Assembly: GCA_965224195.1 (NCBI GenBank)
Contig: OZ245040.1
Span: forward strand, 1,024,001-1,088,000
Direction: 5' to 3'
From: Nitrosopumilus sp.
GTDB taxonomy: Archaea > Thermoproteota > Nitrososphaeria > Nitrososphaerales > Nitrosopumilaceae
Length of the DNA: 64,000 nucleotides
Below, piece by piece: positions 26,433 to 32,694 of the stretch (the stretch's first letter is position 1; each line of letters starts with the position of its first letter). The notes under the pieces were generated by a model, which did not search any database, was not told the origin of the DNA, and saw nothing but the letters and a program-made list of their open reading frames with translations. Both the position numbers and the translations under genes were made by a program.

Positions 26433-27455
26433 TTGAATGAAACAATCCAAAAAAATCGTGATTACAAAAAATATGTCATAGATTCAAAACTTCAATATTT
26501 CAAACCTCATGCTAGTAAAATAGAGAAAACATTTGCTGAAGAAATATCTTCAAGCTTGAATAGGAATTCTAAATTTATCACACCTAAATTTTTTTATGAT
26601 AAAAAAGGCTCTGATTTGTTTGAAAAAATCTGTACCCTTCCTGAATATTATCCTACACGAACTGAAATTTCCATTTTGAAGAATTTACAGACTGAATTAC
26701 CTTCATTTATTGATGATTCCTTTAGATTAGTTGAACTTGGTAGTGGTTCATCAGTGAAAACACGACTAGTACTTGATATTTTTACCAAAATGCAACAAAC
26801 TACAGAATATTTCCCAATTGACATCTCTGAAATTTTAACTGAAAGTTCAGAACAACTATTACAAGATTATGACAATCTTCGAATCACCGGAATTATTGAT
26901 ACATACGAAGGTGGTTTAGAATTTTTAAAAAATTATGATGATAAAAATAATCTTATTCTATTTTTAGGTTCTAGCTTTGGAAATTTTTCTCCTGCTGATG
27001 GCAAAATCTTTTTGGAAAAAATAAATTCTACAATGAAATCTGGCGATTTATTTTTAATTGGTTTGGATTTGGTAAAAGATTCACAAATTTTAGAATCTGC
27101 ATATGATGATACACAAGGTGTTACTGCAGAATTTAATCTCAATGTTCTGTCTAGAATAAATGATGAGCTTGATGCTGATTTTAATTTAAATAATTTTTCA
27201 CATTATTCTACTTACAATAAAGAGGATCAGAGAATTGAAATGTATTTGAAATCTTTAGTAAATCAGTCTGTTATAATTTCAAAATCTAATCTTTCATTAA
27301 ATTTAGAAAAAGATGAATTAATCCATACTGAATATTCTCATAAATATACTCTGGATCAAATTAAAACTCTTCTTGAAAGTACTGGATTCAAAATTAATCA
27401 TACTTGGTTAGATGAGAATACACATTTTTCATTAACCCTAGTCTCAAAAAACTAA
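26433..27455 (+). CDS. egtD: L-histidine N-alpha-methyltransferase
   Basis: PKFFYD..GS.LFE.I..LPEYYPTRTE, ELGSGS..KT, AYDD..GVTA.FN and TE.S.KY. Confidence 0.95.
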   Translation: MNETIQKNRDYKKYVIDSKLQYFKPHASKIEKTFAEEISSSLNRNSKFITPKFFYDKKGSDLFEKICTLPEYYPTRTEISILKNLQTELPSFIDDSFRLVELGSGSSVKTRLVLDIFTKMQQTTEYFPIDISEILTESSEQLLQDYDNLRITGIIDTYEGGLEFLKNYDDKNNLILFLGSSFGNFSPADGKIFLEKINSTMKSGDLFLIGLDLVKDSQILESAYDDTQGVTAEFNLNVLSRINDELDADFNLNNFSHYSTYNKEDQRIEMYLKSLVNQSVIISKSNLSLNLEKDELIHTEYSHKYTLDQIKTLLESTGFKINHTWLDENTHFSLTLVSKN

Positions 27456-28762
27456 ATATTTTCAGCACATCTGAAACCTGAGAACAACCATCTTTCATCT
27501 AGTCTGAAGAAATTTCTGTAACTTCCTCTAATTGACATCTTTGGTGTTCCAAAAGAACCTCCTCTCAAAACTTTTTGATTTGTAAACCATTTGTCATTAT
27601 ATTCGTCAAATCCTGACTTGAATCCTGGATATCCTGTATACTCTGATGATGTCCATTCCCAAACATCTCCAATCATTTGTTGACATCCTGAATTGCTTGC
27701 TCCATTTGGATATGCTCCTACTTCCAAACAGCCCCAATGATATGATTCAAGTAAATTACATTTATCATCAGTTGGTTTTTCATTTCCCCATGGGAATGTT
27801 GTTTTCTCTTGCTTGTCCTCATTCCAACAAGCGGCTTTTTCCCATTCAGCTTCAGTTGGGAGTCTTTTACCTGCCCACTTACAATATGCGTCTGCTTCAT
27901 AGAAACTTACATGACATACTGGTTCGTTTAGATTGATTTTTCTAATTCCTAAAAAGTCTCTTATGTACCATTCATCCTCAATTTTTTCCCAATACATTGG
28001 AGATTTCCATTTGTTTTCTTTGACTTTTTCCCATCCGTCTGATAACCAATATCGGTATGTCTCATATCCGCCGCTTTCCATAAATTCTAGATATTGTTTG
28101 TTTGTTACAGGAAATTTATCTATTTTGTAATCATTAAGATGGACCTTGTGTTCCGGTAATTCAATATCGTAACAAAATTCTTCTCCATTGTTTCCCATGG
28201 TGTATAATCCTCCTTTGATGTGGATTGATCTTCTTTCAATGTTTATCTGTTTTGTAATTCCATTTTTCTTTACAGGTCTGTATTGTTCTGCAAGTAAATG
28301 TTGTAAATCATACACTAAAAGTTCTTGATGTTGACATTCATGATGAAACCCTGTTATGATTAGTTTGATGGCATCTTCACTTAGTGTTTGAGTTTGAATA
28401 AATTTCTCAACTCTTTGATTTATTGTATTGAAATATTGAAAAATTTGATCAGTTGTTGGCCTTGAAACAACTCCCCTCAAACCTTTGTCATGAGGTACTC
28501 CAAATTGCTGATAATAGGAATTTAGATATTCTGAAAATTCTTTAGAGTAAAATTCATAATTTTTATCAATTTTGCTCATTATTGTTTCATAAATCCAACT
28601 TACATGTCCTAGATGCCACTTTGGTGGGCTCATGAAAAATGCAGTTTGAACTACAAAATCATCTTTTTCTAGAGTTTTTACTAATTCTAGTGTTCTACTA
28701 CGTGTCTCTTTAAACTGCTCTAGTAATGAAATTCCTGACTGCAACTCTGGATTGGAGGTCAA
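27452..28762 (-). CDS. egtB: Ergothioneine biosynthesis sulfoxide synthase
   Basis: DinB-like SPPKWHLGH and HECQHQEL Fe ligands plus an FGE-like domain (RLPTEAEWE, GDVWEWT, LRGGS); convergent with egtD. Confidence 0.92.
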   Translation of the reverse strand: MTSNPELQSGISLLEQFKETRSRTLELVKTLEKDDFVVQTAFFMSPPKWHLGHVSWIYETIMSKIDKNYEFYSKEFSEYLNSYYQQFGVPHDKGLRGVVSRPTTDQIFQYFNTINQRVEKFIQTQTLSEDAIKLIITGFHHECQHQELLVYDLQHLLAEQYRPVKKNGITKQINIERRSIHIKGGLYTMGNNGEEFCYDIELPEHKVHLNDYKIDKFPVTNKQYLEFMESGGYETYRYWLSDGWEKVKENKWKSPMYWEKIEDEWYIRDFLGIRKINLNEPVCHVSFYEADAYCKWAGKRLPTEAEWEKAACWNEDKQEKTTFPWGNEKPTDDKCNLLESYHWGCLEVGAYPNGASNSGCQQMIGDVWEWTSSEYTGYPGFKSGFDEYNDKWFTNQKVLRGGSFGTPKMSIRGSYRNFFRLDERWLFSGFRCAENI

Positions 28763-28970
28763 TATTGGAAAATTATGTTTTTTCTATTTTTATGTTTGTA
28801 GGTACTTTTACTGTGGGATATTCTCCCATCGGGTTTTGTCAGATCAGTTCAACACCCTGCCCTTTTGTTATTATACCATCCAAAATATTGCCCAAAAAAG
28901 GTTCAAGCCTTTACGGAATTGCACTCATGAGTAGAACACTTTATGAATGTCTGATTTGGAGAAAAAGAAA

Positions 28971-29654
28971 ATGAAAACTAGGCTTTTGATAATTTTACTT
29001 GTATTTGAAATGATGGCAATTGTAGGATTTATGCTTTCTGCATCTACGACGAAGATGTTGTTGGTTATCGCGGATGGTTAATTGATGGCAATTGTAGGAT
29101 TTTCTATGCTTTCTGCATCAGGACTGTCTTGTGGTATTCCTCTTTTTACAGAATCCTATGAAAGACATGACTTGCTATTACATGGAAAACTTGTTGAAAA
29201 AAACATTCCAGATTTCCTGTCCAACAAACACACTACTCTAATCTTTGATACAATCAAAGTGTACAAAGGAGAGTTTAGTAGCTCATTTACGATAAAAGCT
29301 GATCTTTCTTGGGATGATTACTATAGAGAGAGCGAAGAGTACATCTTGTTTGCAGATAAAGATGGAGATAACTATCTCAGAGAACTGTGTGTACCTGATT
29401 ATTTGGCATCTCCATCTATAGTTAAATTTCTTGATGATAATTCTTTTAAAACTTCAGAGGCTTATTTCTTGTATCTTCTGCTTCCAGAAGATGAATTAGA
29501 AGATGTTCACACTAGAATGAGTCTTTATACTGATTTGAACCGTGCTGAGAGACATAATGGTACTCCTTATCTGATTTATGCTAGCATTCTTGTCTTGATT
29601 GGAACAGGGATTTACTTTTTAGTGTATTTTCTAAAAAAGAGAATTAGAAAATGA
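28971..29654 (+). pseudogene. Secreted, C-terminally anchored TIMP/NTR-like-domain protein interrupted by a duplication/insertion with an in-frame TAA
   Basis: MKTRLLIILL... (28971-29081) is in frame with ORF 29082-29654 (LSCG..., F...KVYKG, EEYILFA...C, then TM and KKRIRK). Re-initiation at 29082/29085 could still give a product. Confidence 0.6.
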
Positions 29655-29896
29655 AAACATCTACTAAATTATCTTATCTGGGATTGATAGTGGCAACTAT
29701 CATGTTTTTTTATGGAATACTAGGAATAATTTCGGGGTTAGCGCCATTAATTATTGTGGGAATACCTTATGGGTTGGATGATATACAATTTATCGGAATT
29801 GCGATTCAGAATCTATTATCTGGCATAGTTCTTGTAATTCCTGGAATTGTACTGTATTGGAAATCTAAACTAATTAAGGAATTTTTAAGAAAATGA
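29651..29896 (+). CDS. Small two-TM membrane protein (MKT start, RK end)
   Basis: Two hydrophobic segments, bounded by junction motifs. Confidence 0.7.
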   Translation: MKTSTKLSYLGLIVATIMFFYGILGIISGLAPLIIVGIPYGLDDIQFIGIAIQNLLSGIVLVIPGIVLYWKSKLIKEFLRK

Positions 29897-29965
29897 AAAC
29901 TAGACATTCTCATTAGGGGTTTTATCTAATTGGTTCGAGTCTCTGAATTTTATTCAGTAATAATT

Positions 29966-31420
29966 CTAGTATCCTCTTGCAAAGACTGGAACTGAAACAC
30001 TTTGTTCCTGACAATAGATGCATTTTTGGTTTGTATTTTCACTTCCAAATGGTATAACTCTGATTTCTGCTCCTGTTTCTTCTTTAATTTTTTCTTCACA
30101 TTCTAATTTTCCGCACCAAGGTGAATTGAAGAAACCACCTTTCTCAATTTTTGATTTAAAATTAGAATAATCAGAAATTTCTAGAGTGTTGTTTTCAGCT
30201 TCTTCTTTGGCTTTTTTTAGCATCTCTGCTTGGATTTCATCTAATATTGTGAGTATTTCCTCAGTTTCTGTAAAACTTAAACTAATTTTTTCAAGATTGT
30301 ATCTTTTTGCAACTATTATGCTATTTTTTTCAATGTCTTTGGGGCCTATCTCTATTCTTAATGGAACTCCCTTCATCTCCCAATCATTAAATTTGTAACC
30401 TGGGGATAATCCCTCTCTTTCATCTACATGTACTCTGATGTCTTTTGATTCTAATTCATTTTTGATTTCTTCTACTTTTGGAAGAACTGTTTCTTTCCCA
30501 TCATCATTTCTATAAATGGGAACGATTACTACTTGCATTGGAGCTACCTTTGGTGGTAAAACTAATCCCTTATCATCTCCATGTGCCATGATCATGGCTC
30601 CGATTAATCTCCAAGAGACTCCCCATGATGTTTGCCAAGCAAAATGCTCTACATTATCTTTGTCTGCAAATTTAACTTCAAATGGTTTTGAAAAGTTTTG
30701 ACCTAGGAAGTGGGAAGTTCCCATCTGTAATGCTTTTCCATCTGGCATGATTGATTCCATCGTAGTGGTATATACTGCTCCAACAAATTTTTCTTTTTCA
30801 CTTTTTTTGCCTGTTGTAACTGGAATTGCTAGTTCTTCTTCAACTGTATTTTTGTAAATATCTAAAATCTTCATTACTTCTTTTTCTGCTTCTTCTTGAG
30901 TGCTGTGGACTGTATGTCCTTCTTGCCATAAAAATTCTGAAGTTCTAAGGAATGGTTTTGTTGCTTTAATTTCTGCTCTCAAGGCAGTGTTCCAAAAGTT
31001 AATTTTTAATGGTAAATCTCTCCAGCTTTGAATCCATTTTGAATACAAAGTATATGCTAATGTCTCAGATGTTGGTCTTAATGCCAATCTATCTCCAATT
31101 TCATTAGTTCCTGAATGAGTTACCCAAAACACTTCTGGGTTGAATCCTGCAAAATGTTTTTGTTCTTTACCTAACAGTGATTCTGGAATTAGTATTGGTA
31201 AAAATCCATTTCTAATACCATTTCTTGAAAATTTCTTGTCAAATGTGCTTCTTAGGGATTCCCAAATTGAATATCCGTCTGGTCTGAGGACGATTAATCC
31301 TTTAACTGGGGCGTAATCTGCAAGTTTTGCCTTTAGAACTACTTGTGTGTACCATTCACTAAAATCATCATTCTTTGAAACTGTAATTCCTACGTCTTCT
31401 TTACCCAAACTAGAATTCAT
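29966..31420 (-). CDS. proS: Proline--tRNA ligase (archaeal/eukaryotic type)
   Basis: RPTSET, FLRTSEFLWQEGHT, QTSWGVSWR and C-terminal FARGY. Confidence 0.97.
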   Translation of the reverse strand: MNSSLGKEDVGITVSKNDDFSEWYTQVVLKAKLADYAPVKGLIVLRPDGYSIWESLRSTFDKKFSRNGIRNGFLPILIPESLLGKEQKHFAGFNPEVFWVTHSGTNEIGDRLALRPTSETLAYTLYSKWIQSWRDLPLKINFWNTALRAEIKATKPFLRTSEFLWQEGHTVHSTQEEAEKEVMKILDIYKNTVEEELAIPVTTGKKSEKEKFVGAVYTTTMESIMPDGKALQMGTSHFLGQNFSKPFEVKFADKDNVEHFAWQTSWGVSWRLIGAMIMAHGDDKGLVLPPKVAPMQVVIVPIYRNDDGKETVLPKVEEIKNELESKDIRVHVDEREGLSPGYKFNDWEMKGVPLRIEIGPKDIEKNSIIVAKRYNLEKISLSFTETEEILTILDEIQAEMLKKAKEEAENNTLEISDYSNFKSKIEKGGFFNSPWCGKLECEEKIKEETGAEIRVIPFGSENTNQKCIYCQEQSVSVPVFARGY

Positions 31421-31547
31421 TGAATTAATTTAACTAATGAGCCTTTCGTGATGATTTTTATTTTAAAAACATCAGGATTCCAATCTGATCATCAAAATTT
31501 GCCAAAACTTGGTTGGAACCACAGCACTTTGATCACGGCAATTATAA

Positions 31548-32694
31548 ATGACAGTCCTGTTTTGTGCTGTTATGTTTGGAAAGGATATTTCCAATGTCTC
31601 ATATGATGATATTAAATCTCTTTTGGACAGCAAAATCCCTGAGAGTGATATTTTGGACTACAAGAGTAAAATGATGGATGATCAAAAACTAGTCAAACAT
31701 GTATGTGCATTTGCCAATACTCGTGGAGGGGATATTGTTTTTGGAATAAAAGAATCTGGCCATGGCGGACATCCCATAGAAATCAATGGACTGGATGCCT
31801 TTAATTTCAACAAGGAAAGACTGGAACAAATTATTCTGTCTAACATTGTGCCAAGATTGGATGTAAAGATAAAATCAATACCTATACCTGATTCTCAAAA
31901 AGTTGTTCTAGTTATTCAGGTGCCCCCTAGCTATCTAAAGCCACATCAAAGTAATTACTCTAAAAAAATTCTACAAGCGCTTTCAATTCGAGTCCGCTGA
32001 GATGACAGAAAATGAGGTTTCAGATTCTTACAGAAGCAGATTCTCTAATTACAAACAAGTCAATCAGTACATCAATGATTCACTTGTGGATGTTAAAAAT
32101 GATGAAATAACTCTCAACATACTTGTAATTCCATCTAACATTGAACATCGCATGATTGATGCATCAGATACTAACGAATTAGAAAAATTGAAATCAGTCA
32201 GATTACCTACCTCTGGTGGAATTAGTGGTTTTCCAAATTGGTCTCTTGGACCATCTTCTCGCGGATTCAAATCAAAATCTACTGATAAACCACTTGAGGA
32301 GTTAGAGATTCATAGGAATAGCTGTGTTCAGTTTGTCGGGCATTATAATCGGCTGCAAGACGGCCATGTGGCACTTCCATATACAAGAGTTGCAGACAGA
32401 TTACTACAAGTGTTAGAATTTTCATATGGTGTTTTGTCTGATCACAATTATTATGGTGATGTAAAAATTGTTATGAGTGCCAGGTGTTTGTCTGGAGTTG
32501 TGCTTCCTGAAAAATATTATGTATCCTCTGCATTAGACAAGCTTGATGCTAAGATTGAAAGAGAGTTTTCATTATCTTATGTTGGTGAGAAGTACGAGCA
32601 GATTGCAGCATCTGTAATGGATGAGCTTTTTAATCATTTTGGAATTCTCAAATGTAATTTGTTTGATGAACAGGGAAATTATTTAGAGAAATAA
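31548..32694 (+). pseudogene. Schlafen/AlbA_2-domain protein split by a +1 frameshift in an A7 run
   Basis: ESDILDYK and CAFANTRGGDIVFGI. Removing one A at 31962-31968 gives ...PHQSNYSKKFYKRFQFESAEMTENEV..., joining ORFs 31548 and 32002. Confidence 0.85.

Follow-up and report, generated by a model that had tools for sequence, protein, structure and literature searches.

A recurrent stop-start leader module at the joints of gene arrays for putatively exported proteins in Nitrosopumilus and its family

The Array Between proS and egtB

The DNA considered here, 64,000 nucleotides (nt) of contig OZ245040.1 from a Nitrosopumilus sp. (assembly GCA_965224195.1, positions 1,024,001 to 1,088,000; hereafter the window), carries a short array of overlapping genes joined by one repeated stop-start sequence. 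The array lies wholly inside a strain-specific insert of about 1.15 kb (28810..29963), between the start of an EgtB-like gene at 28762 and the stop of the prolyl-tRNA synthetase gene proS at 29966, and runs on the plus strand, opposite to these two minus-strand neighbours. Its joints share the 13-mer AGAAAATGAAAAC, found exactly and on the plus strand at 28966-28978, 29646-29658 and 29888-29900. Copy 1 (28956..28994, +) has the leader form of a first gene, TTGGAGAAAAAGAAA-ATG-AAA-ACT-AGG-CTT-TTG-ATA-ATT with its ATG at 28971, a stretch that relatives also carry, in clusters. Copies 2 and 3 are ATGA overlaps. In copy 2 (29646..29658, +) the TGA of gene 1 (29652-29654) meets the ATG of gene 2 (29651), and copy 3 (29888..29916, +) supplies the TGA of gene 2 and then opens a stub of seven codons, MKTRHSH* (29893-29916). 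The stub is probably the remnant of a lost downstream cassette; in a relative (G017), a joint matching copy 3 leads into a full gene of 217 amino acids (aa).

Copy 1 is 91% identical to copy 3 over 22 nt (28965-28986 against 29887-29908) and 90% identical to copy 2 over 20 nt. With a further copy at 32565 on the minus strand, which has one mismatch, the window holds four matches at no more than one mismatch; the mean in shuffled sequence is 0.77, and one shuffle in 100 reached four. The whole genome (G000; 2.07 Mb, 33.6% G+C) contains five exact 13-mers, three of them in this array. Long open frames meet at 105 ATGA junctions in the genome, and one of these, the joint of gene 1 and gene 2, matches the 13-mer, where 0.011 would be expected from position-wise frequencies; the 13-mer is therefore not a by-product of A-rich overlaps. 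Enrichment at ATGA overlaps had been set beforehand as a test by a sequence-only reading of the window, which took the junction for a real, repeated, cassette-like joint. This part of that reading is upheld, both by the three exact copies and by long arrays in relatives, where genes for unrelated, putatively exported proteins use the same joint.

Upstream of copy 1, the open reading frame (ORF) at 28726-28974, which ends in ...WRKRK*, was rejected as a gene, since it reaches across the edge of the insert into the start of egtB. The sequence-only reading was right that no real gene precedes copy 1 and wrong that none needs it: ATG 28971 is the true start of gene 1. A promoter-like box, AACACTTTATGA (28934..28945, +), stands about 30 nt before this ATG. 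The same (A/C)CTT(T)ATGA box is found in relatives at about -30 to -37 of the first genes of arrays, the internal genes of which overlap the preceding stop, and also before genes that have no module; it may represent a B recognition element (BRE)/TATA promoter. At the edges of two large arrays of another genome (G125) lie a TFIIB paralogue (L043:131-886) and a TBP gene (L045:2499-3071); a dedicated initiation factor might conceivably read the CTTTATGA-type box.

A Conserved Leader Module

Clusters in related genomes that match pieces of the insert were fetched, and their comparison shows that the 13-mer is the core of a longer, conserved leader module. Its consensus is roughly (GGAG)AAAAAGAAA-ATG-AAA-ACT-AGR, followed by CTT-TTG-ATA-AT or TAC-AAA-AT, and codes for MKTRLLII or MKTRYKI, the start of a predicted signal peptide or membrane anchor. 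In 121 genomes of the genus, a 16-mer of the module (at most one mismatch) has 367 matches, clustered and spread over 67 genomes, against about 80 (hand count) for the reversed control; the respective figures are 34 and 1 in G021, 29 and 0 in G125, and 24 and 2 in G126, and many complete genomes of the genus lack the 16-mer. Across 201 sampled genomes of the order, only the family of the window is enriched; two further genera of this family reach 9 and 17 copies, and the other families stand at the level of the control. The likeness of the modules is one of nucleotides and not a convergence of signal peptides, because codons outside the 16-mer are chosen quite differently from those of the genome at large: CTT stands for Leu5 in 21 of 31 cases (genome fraction 0.20), TTG for Leu6 in 44 of 53 (0.17) and ATA for Ile7 in 46 of 67 (0.25). 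The joints are unstructured (DNA-fold z for the three 71-nt windows of +1.39, -1.33 and +0.71 on the plus strand and +1.31, -1.64 and +0.31 on the minus strand), which fits a translation-initiation region. The few other module-headed ORFs of G000 (C1 1445242-1450093 and 690121-690839) are mostly decayed and include a 61-aa remnant of a family that measures 279-357 aa in relatives, as well as stubs (30 aa and 46 aa); near 690 kb lie two module-headed genes, small and apparently intact.

The manner in which the module ends the gene before it was followed in G000 and 16 array loci, where 115 matches with an intact ATG and at most two mismatches were collected, 86 of them heading ORFs of at least 40 aa. 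An upstream open frame of at least 60 codons ends within -30..+20 of the ATG in 75 of these 86, and in 59 of the 75 it does so at one of the module's own stops. The commonest joint is the -4 overlap, in which the frame closes at the TGA of ATGA (28 of 75); another 17 frames close at +8, the TAG of ATGAAAACTAG, and 14 at -6, the TAG of TAG-AAA-ATG (one a TAA in either group). TAG-AAA-ATG, ATGA and ATGAAAACTAG place a stop in every frame around the ATG, so that an upstream ORF in any frame ends within 11 nt of the next start. Because the module supplies these stops, upstream proteins end in …RKRK* (TGG-AGA-AAA-AGA-AAA-TGA) or in …ENEN* (GAA-AAT-GAA-AAC-TAG). The 'WRKRK' tails named by the sequence-only reading are the module read in the +1 frame, and such a basic tail, when it follows a transmembrane (TM) helix of the upstream protein, probably doubles as a positive-inside anchor. 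Proteins starting in MKTR... and ending in ...RKRK, said there to be common in Nitrosopumilus, are indeed seen across the module-headed arrays of relatives. Co-directed genes with a stop at -6, +1 or +8 of the ATG, as in those 59 joints, have the geometry of termination-reinitiation pairs, and the available parts of two publications describe coupling of translation by termination-reinitiation at ATGA overlaps in archaea and bacteria (PMC6728339, PMC10666635).

Arrays and Cargo in Related Genomes

In relatives the arrays are head-to-tail series of co-oriented, overlapping genes for unrelated, putatively exported proteins, each opened by the module. Among 77 module proteins, Pfam matches above cut-off include Serpin (1.3e-115), Metallophos, DUF6438 and SNase, and 68 of the 77 have no match. 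When the first 28 residues are removed, 80 module proteins fall into 40 BLAST groups, comprising one of 24 members linked by shared domains and 29 singletons. The starts of the genes for a serpin, for a DUF6438 protein and for gene 1 are nevertheless near-identical over about 24 nt, and a second serpin gene keeps the module with TTG replacing ATG. Residues 4-30 include a hydrophobic stretch in every one of the 80 module proteins of at least 60 aa, and 18 of these proteins also end in a C-terminal TM helix with a basic tail. Stubs of less than 40 aa account for 29 of the 115 module matches; several stand at the ends of arrays, where they supply the stop of the last gene as in the window. The rule of n+1 junctions for n units, proposed from the window alone, thus describes the arrays of relatives as well, which end in an extra stub joint. 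Housekeeping genes for ArgRS, topoisomerase IB, TFIIB, TBP and PNP are found as neighbours of arrays; an AmoB-like domain and a topoisomerase IB of eukaryote type are present at these loci, both in keeping with an ammonia-oxidising thaumarchaeon.

Cassettes Shared Between Genomes

For a comparison of gene neighbours, 293 ORFs were called in 22 loci and homologous pairs were taken between genomes, 22 pairs at locus edges being set aside. Both neighbours were present for 88 pairs; neither is shared in 82 of these, one in 6 and both in none, a pattern that holds for pairs up to 96% identical in protein. Fourteen pairs were inspected at the nucleotide level. In seven, homology runs from -4 to -16 (or from the ATG itself) to +1 to +14 past the stop, that is, inside the next module, and two of the fourteen start at the promoter-type region near -48. 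For high-scoring segment pairs (HSPs) of at least 200 nt, 27 of 98 ends fall within -20..+25 of a module ATG, as against 3.2% of random positions (8.6-fold); homology ends are enriched at modules without being exclusive to them. The idea that whole cassettes are shuffled is supported in so far as cassettes shared between species keep homology only from junction to junction and differ in both neighbours in 82 of 88 pairs.

Gene 2 of the window (29651..29896, +), an 81-aa hydrophobic membrane protein that belongs to no known family and ends in ...EFLRK*, offers a case of this kind. Its one homologue among the genomes searched, in G017, is 86% identical in nucleotides and 72% in amino acids; the homology is limited to the segment from -12 of the ATG through +6 past the stop, and both neighbouring genes differ. 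A metagenome scan using gene 2 gave 596 pattern matches, none of which was confirmed.

Gene 1 of the Window

Gene 1 (28971..29654, +) is predicted to comprise a signal peptide or anchor (MKTRLLIILLVF...), an ectodomain of TIMP/NTR-like OB fold that starts at an LSC motif, and a C-terminal TM helix with a basic tail (...KKRIRK*). In the assembly it is interrupted by the in-frame TAA (29079-29081) of a 72-nt segment (29011..29082, +), an imperfect partial duplication plus filler associated with direct repeats at 29008-29030 and 29080-29102, which leaves an apparent ORF of 36 codons. Contigs of three of four public sequencing runs (X1 and X2 from one study, X4 from a second) join 29010 to 29083 and skip the segment, so that gene 1 is intact in those data (MKTRLLIILLVFEMMAIVGFSMLSASGLSCGIP…); the fourth run (X5) has no contig there. 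At this point the assembly has either recorded a minority variant or introduced an artefact, and the runs that best hold this DNA may come from the source sample of the assembly. Over 27400-31500, the skip is the sole alternative joint in the contigs of the four runs, and none was seen at the three junctions.

An AlphaFold model of gene 1 (predicted local distance difference test, pLDDT, 73; predicted template modelling score, pTM, 0.64) retrieved with Foldseek the NTR domain of PCOLCE1 (E 1.0e-4, TM-score 0.65 by target), TIMP-1/2 (E 1.4e-4 to 5e-4) and agrin NtA, the whole set lying at E 1e-4 to 1e-3. The LSC, predicted to be the mature N-terminus, and a second Cys are invariant in seven homologues. 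As modelled, the ectodomain combines the two marks of the TIMP/NTR group, an OB-fold NTR domain and an N-terminal Cys that would open the mature chain. Ectodomain homologues of 50-57% identity occur in five genomes, with N-termini of module type or of other types. The C-terminal TM anchor (29565..29654, +) recurs in other small proteins devoid of the ectodomain: it is 84% identical in nucleotides to G021:522237-522330, part of a different gene, and matches of the anchor alone at 65-76% aa identity are found in G146, G139, G126 and G166. Gene 1 is thus a mosaic of an ectodomain and an anchor that recur separately. Neither gene 1 nor gene 2 has a match at or near cut-off in Pfam or NCBIfam, the NCBIfam matches include no C-terminal sorting-domain model, and tblastn found no paralogue of either gene beyond chance in the genome.

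The Insert, its Edges and a Dispersed Repeat

The identities given to the flanking genes by the sequence-only reading agree with their Pfam matches, FGE-sulfatase (5.5e-53) and DinB_2 (5.9e-07) for the EgtB-like gene (27452..28762, -) and ProRS-C_1, tRNA-synt_2b and HGTP_anticodon for proS (29966..31420, -). An EgtD-like methyltransferase (Methyltransf_33, 8.2e-106) is convergent with the EgtB-like gene, and the two form an ergothioneine-type pair (26433-28762) adjoining the insert. At 15 loci of the same genus, only a short spacer lies between the egtB start and the proS stop, with no joint and no other part of the array. A different gene of about 120 aa occupies the spacer in four genomes (loci L015, L016/L039, L019, L021), and the closest relative (G015, flanks 91-92% identical) has an unrelated larger insert at which its assembly is split into two contigs (L002, L038). 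Strain-specific insertions seem to accumulate in this spacer as at a hotspot. The left edge of the insert in the window is some 156 nt upstream of copy 1 and its right edge some 60 nt downstream of copy 3; both edges are outside the module, and the insertion or deletion at this locus therefore did not use the joint. Two expectations of the sequence-only reading fail here, namely that presence/absence breakpoints would fall in the motif and that an empty site would retain one junction.

Near both edges lies a copy of a dispersed repeat of about 42 nt (consensus AATTCTC-nCAA-GGGG-AATTGTCTGATTAGTTCAA-n-TCTCT; nhmmer and covariance model). The left copy (28819..28860, +) lies 9 nt in from the left edge of the insert, and the right copy (29905..29947, +), in direct orientation to it and fused to the stub, lies 16 nt in from the right edge; a partial third look-alike (GGTTCAAGCCTTTACGG) occurs at about 28899-28915. 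G000 has eight copies (the others on C1 at 535500, 908908, 909682, 1806382, 1807692 and 1811934), and 27 of 61 genomes of the genus have 1-8 copies. At L031, L036 and L042 of relatives, the repeat comes after the final gene of the array, and it is absent from the 15 empty spacers and from the other inserts between proS and egtB. Its consensus folds into a 4-bp stem only, with a covariation term of -0.04. Possible roles of the repeat are those of a 3'-end signal or a regulatory site; it might also be left over from mobile DNA. A T-loop-like GGTTCGAGTC within it was considered as a tRNA fragment and rejected, no stem pairing being apparent by eye and a tRNA scan of the window having found none; an Rfam search of 28600-30100 (E<=10) returned seven matches, all far under gathering scores.

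At G000:C1:908850-908950 (L061 ~250-350), a promoter-type module (ACTTTATGACTATCACAAATAAAGAAAATGAAAACTAGA) is fused to the 42-nt repeat at the point that corresponds to copy 3, with a junction near 908896. This 'empty' unit stands upstream of a widely conserved GNAT acetyltransferase gene. The segment between the two repeat copies there (908.9-909.7 kb) finds no support as a mobile unit: homologues of the GNAT gene (~L061 333-841) are present in many of the 100 other genomes of the genus that were searched, and 78 of these 100 match some part of the 1.4-kb query. Integrase-like matches, some of them weak, occur at C1 548710, 1798593, 2032675 and 2040907, 8-13 kb from the repeats at 535 kb and 1806-1812 kb and near a module look-alike with a TTG start at 2030938; these matches may mark integrated elements.

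Recombinases and Attachment Sites

The sequence-only reading saw no recombinase in the window, and none of the seven PF00589 matches of G000 lies there, the nearest being about 208 kb away. Among 114 non-module ORFs of at least 90 aa in the 16 array loci, none matches an integrase, recombinase, resolvase or transposase family at E<=1e-4. The three joints have no attC-like hairpin or inverted repeats and fold no better than shuffled sequence on either strand, and the repeat sits at the 5' coding end of each cassette, unlike attC. No excision joint was seen at the junctions in the run contigs, which drop rare variants. An integron-like mechanism, as originally proposed, finds no support in arrays that adjoin no recombinase and in joints that are unstructured as single strands.

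Weighing the Explanations

With a probability of about 0.6, the module is a translational-coupling and export-leader element whose repetition lets homologous recombination shuffle cassettes. It consists of an A-rich, unstructured initiation region, often preceded by GGAG, an ATG and about eight codons of predicted signal peptide or anchor, and heads a large, fast-turnover set of genes for putatively exported proteins that are stacked co-directionally in the flexible genome of the family. The stops in three frames near the next ATG would couple neighbouring genes by termination-reinitiation and, because the same ~25-45 nt recur at every joint, ordinary recombination could exchange the cassettes. 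Homology-driven events would duplicate, delete, swap or import whole cassettes, leave both neighbours translatable and require no dedicated integrase; the arrays are best read as resembling an integron in outcome and not in mechanism. The window would then hold a minimal example: within 1.15 kb of strain-specific inserted DNA, a module of promoter type leads into the genes for a TIMP/NTR-like anchored protein and an 81-aa membrane protein, and a stub closes the array.

Several points weigh against this account. Most HSP ends (71 of 98) lie away from modules, some breakpoints among the 14 inspected pairs fall inside genes, and selection for intact genes in compact, overlapping arrays would by itself drive surviving breakpoints to gene boundaries. 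Mismatches between modules over 61 columns are 27.84 within genomes and 27.71 between them, a difference reached in 328 of 500 permutations; since modules are no more alike within than between genomes, there is no general sign of gene conversion. The insert of the window is bounded outside the module, all array comparisons are between species, and module counts rise with PF00589 counts across the 121 genomes (Spearman 0.45, uncontrolled for genome size, completeness and relatedness). In G021, codon 3 is AGT (MKSR...) in 7 of 17 modules (L032-L034), before different cargos, as against 1 of 98 elsewhere; this variant is the sole hint of spread or conversion within a genome.

Function alone might account for much of the pattern, if the module were an mRNA 5' end selected for efficient, unstructured initiation or for recognition by a regulator or small RNA that co-regulates this secretome, and if the cassettes reflected selection for intact genes in hypervariable island operons. 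The low structure of copy 1 (193 of 200 shuffles fold as well or better), the equal likeness of modules within and between genomes, the many homology ends away from modules and an insert that did not arrive via the module are all in line with such selection. The same module is, however, carried by unrelated folds (serpin, metallophosphoesterase, DUF6438, TIMP-like), so that the leader would have been joined to different genes many times, that is, by recombination at or near the module. Homologues of gene 1 with or without the module, the 8.6-fold enrichment of homology ends and the frequency of stubs (29 of 115) also speak for more than function, as does the rarity of the module in G000 (five copies): many proteins must be exported there, and translation and secretion in general are therefore independent of it. 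Selection on function alone is consequently conceivable and, in our view, rather unlikely.

We give still less credit to a site-specific cassette system, comparable to attC/IntI or to the sites of Xer1, in which the joint, alone or with the 42-nt repeat, would be the true recombination site of an unlinked and unrecognised recombinase that inserts, excises and reorders cassettes; these archaea would then have a functional counterpart of the integron, with an attachment site that doubles as three-frame stop, restart codon and start of an export signal. Cassette geometry with n+1 joints, junction-bounded homology, the correlation with PF00589 counts, the two direct 42-nt repeats that bound the insert and the weak integrase-like matches 8-13 kb from repeats in G000 would suit such a system, for which the vpma recombination sites at -1 to -72 of conserved 5' regions, as described in the available part of PMC2268961, provide a precedent. 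On the other hand, none of the 114 array-locus ORFs is recombinase-like, the window has no PF00589 match, the joints lack inverted repeats and hairpins, the 42-nt repeat has a 4-bp stem and almost no covariation, empty sites in 15 relatives contain neither joint nor repeat, and excision joints are missing from the run contigs, in so far as contigs retain rare variants. The correlation itself has exceptions, as G048 (complete) combines eight modules with no PF00589 match and G125 combines 29 modules with one, and an unlinked recombinase acting on the joints is unlikely. Chance recurrence of an A-rich ATGA overlap, to which a genome of 33.6% G+C with AGA, AAA and ACT as preferred codons might lend itself, is refuted by the shuffles, by the ATGA junctions and by the clustered excess across 121 genomes, and conservation extends 20-30 nt beyond the 13-mer.

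Comparison with Known Systems

If the coupling-leader account is true, an abundant archaeal group assembles and rearranges its exported repertoire from cassettes joined by one universal joint. This repertoire includes protease inhibitors (serpins and TIMP-like proteins, the latter predicted from a model), nucleases and phosphoesterases, and on this account neither integrons nor transposons would be needed for the turnover of strain-specific surface and secreted functions in the flexible genome. The 16-mer would be a simple sequence tag for finding such islands, and the module could serve, in organisms that have no genetic tools, as a natural element that combines coupling and leader for expression work. 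The archaeal module was not found described in print, and the strings MKTRLL and MKTRYK had no occurrence in the literature searched, from which supplements were excluded; in the available part of a preprint on flexible islands of ammonia-oxidising archaea, the terms 'cassette', 'recombin' and 'integrase' are absent.

Ordinary ATGA overlaps differ in sequence between gene pairs, whereas the archaeal joint is one fixed module for many unrelated pairs and carries a stop in every frame. Integron cassettes depend on the recombinase IntI, an attI site and 3' non-coding attC sites that fold as hairpins, are excised as circles and are expressed from a common promoter. The archaeal arrays are like them in having co-oriented, unrelated small genes, boundary repeats, n+1 boundaries, strain-specific content and varying cassette order. 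Unlike in integrons, the repeat is 5' coding sequence (start codon and signal peptide) and forms no hairpin, there is no adjacent intI, and the cassettes overlap translationally. In superfamilies of the conotoxin type, the signal is conserved and the mature parts are hypervariable with a common ancestor; the likeness lies in a leader conserved at the nucleotide level before fast-diverging exported products, and the difference in that several archaeal cargos belong to different established families.

The closest known analogues are the vpma/vsp (vsa) systems of mycoplasmas, where, according to the available part of the source, a conserved 5' untranslated region (UTR) and signal-peptide region precedes mature parts that have no significant homology, recombination maps to -1 to -72 of the start, and a locus-encoded tyrosine recombinase (Xer1, Mbr or HvsR) inverts DNA and thereby moves a single promoter (PMC2268961). 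The vpma/vsp genes are lipoproteins of one broad family expressed one at a time, whereas the archaeal cargos have unrelated folds and the archaeal arrays are co-oriented, with stop-start overlaps that would favour co-expression, no recombinase nearby, and a joint that stops the upstream gene in three frames. What the two share is a conserved 5' UTR and signal-peptide region placed before otherwise unrelated genes.

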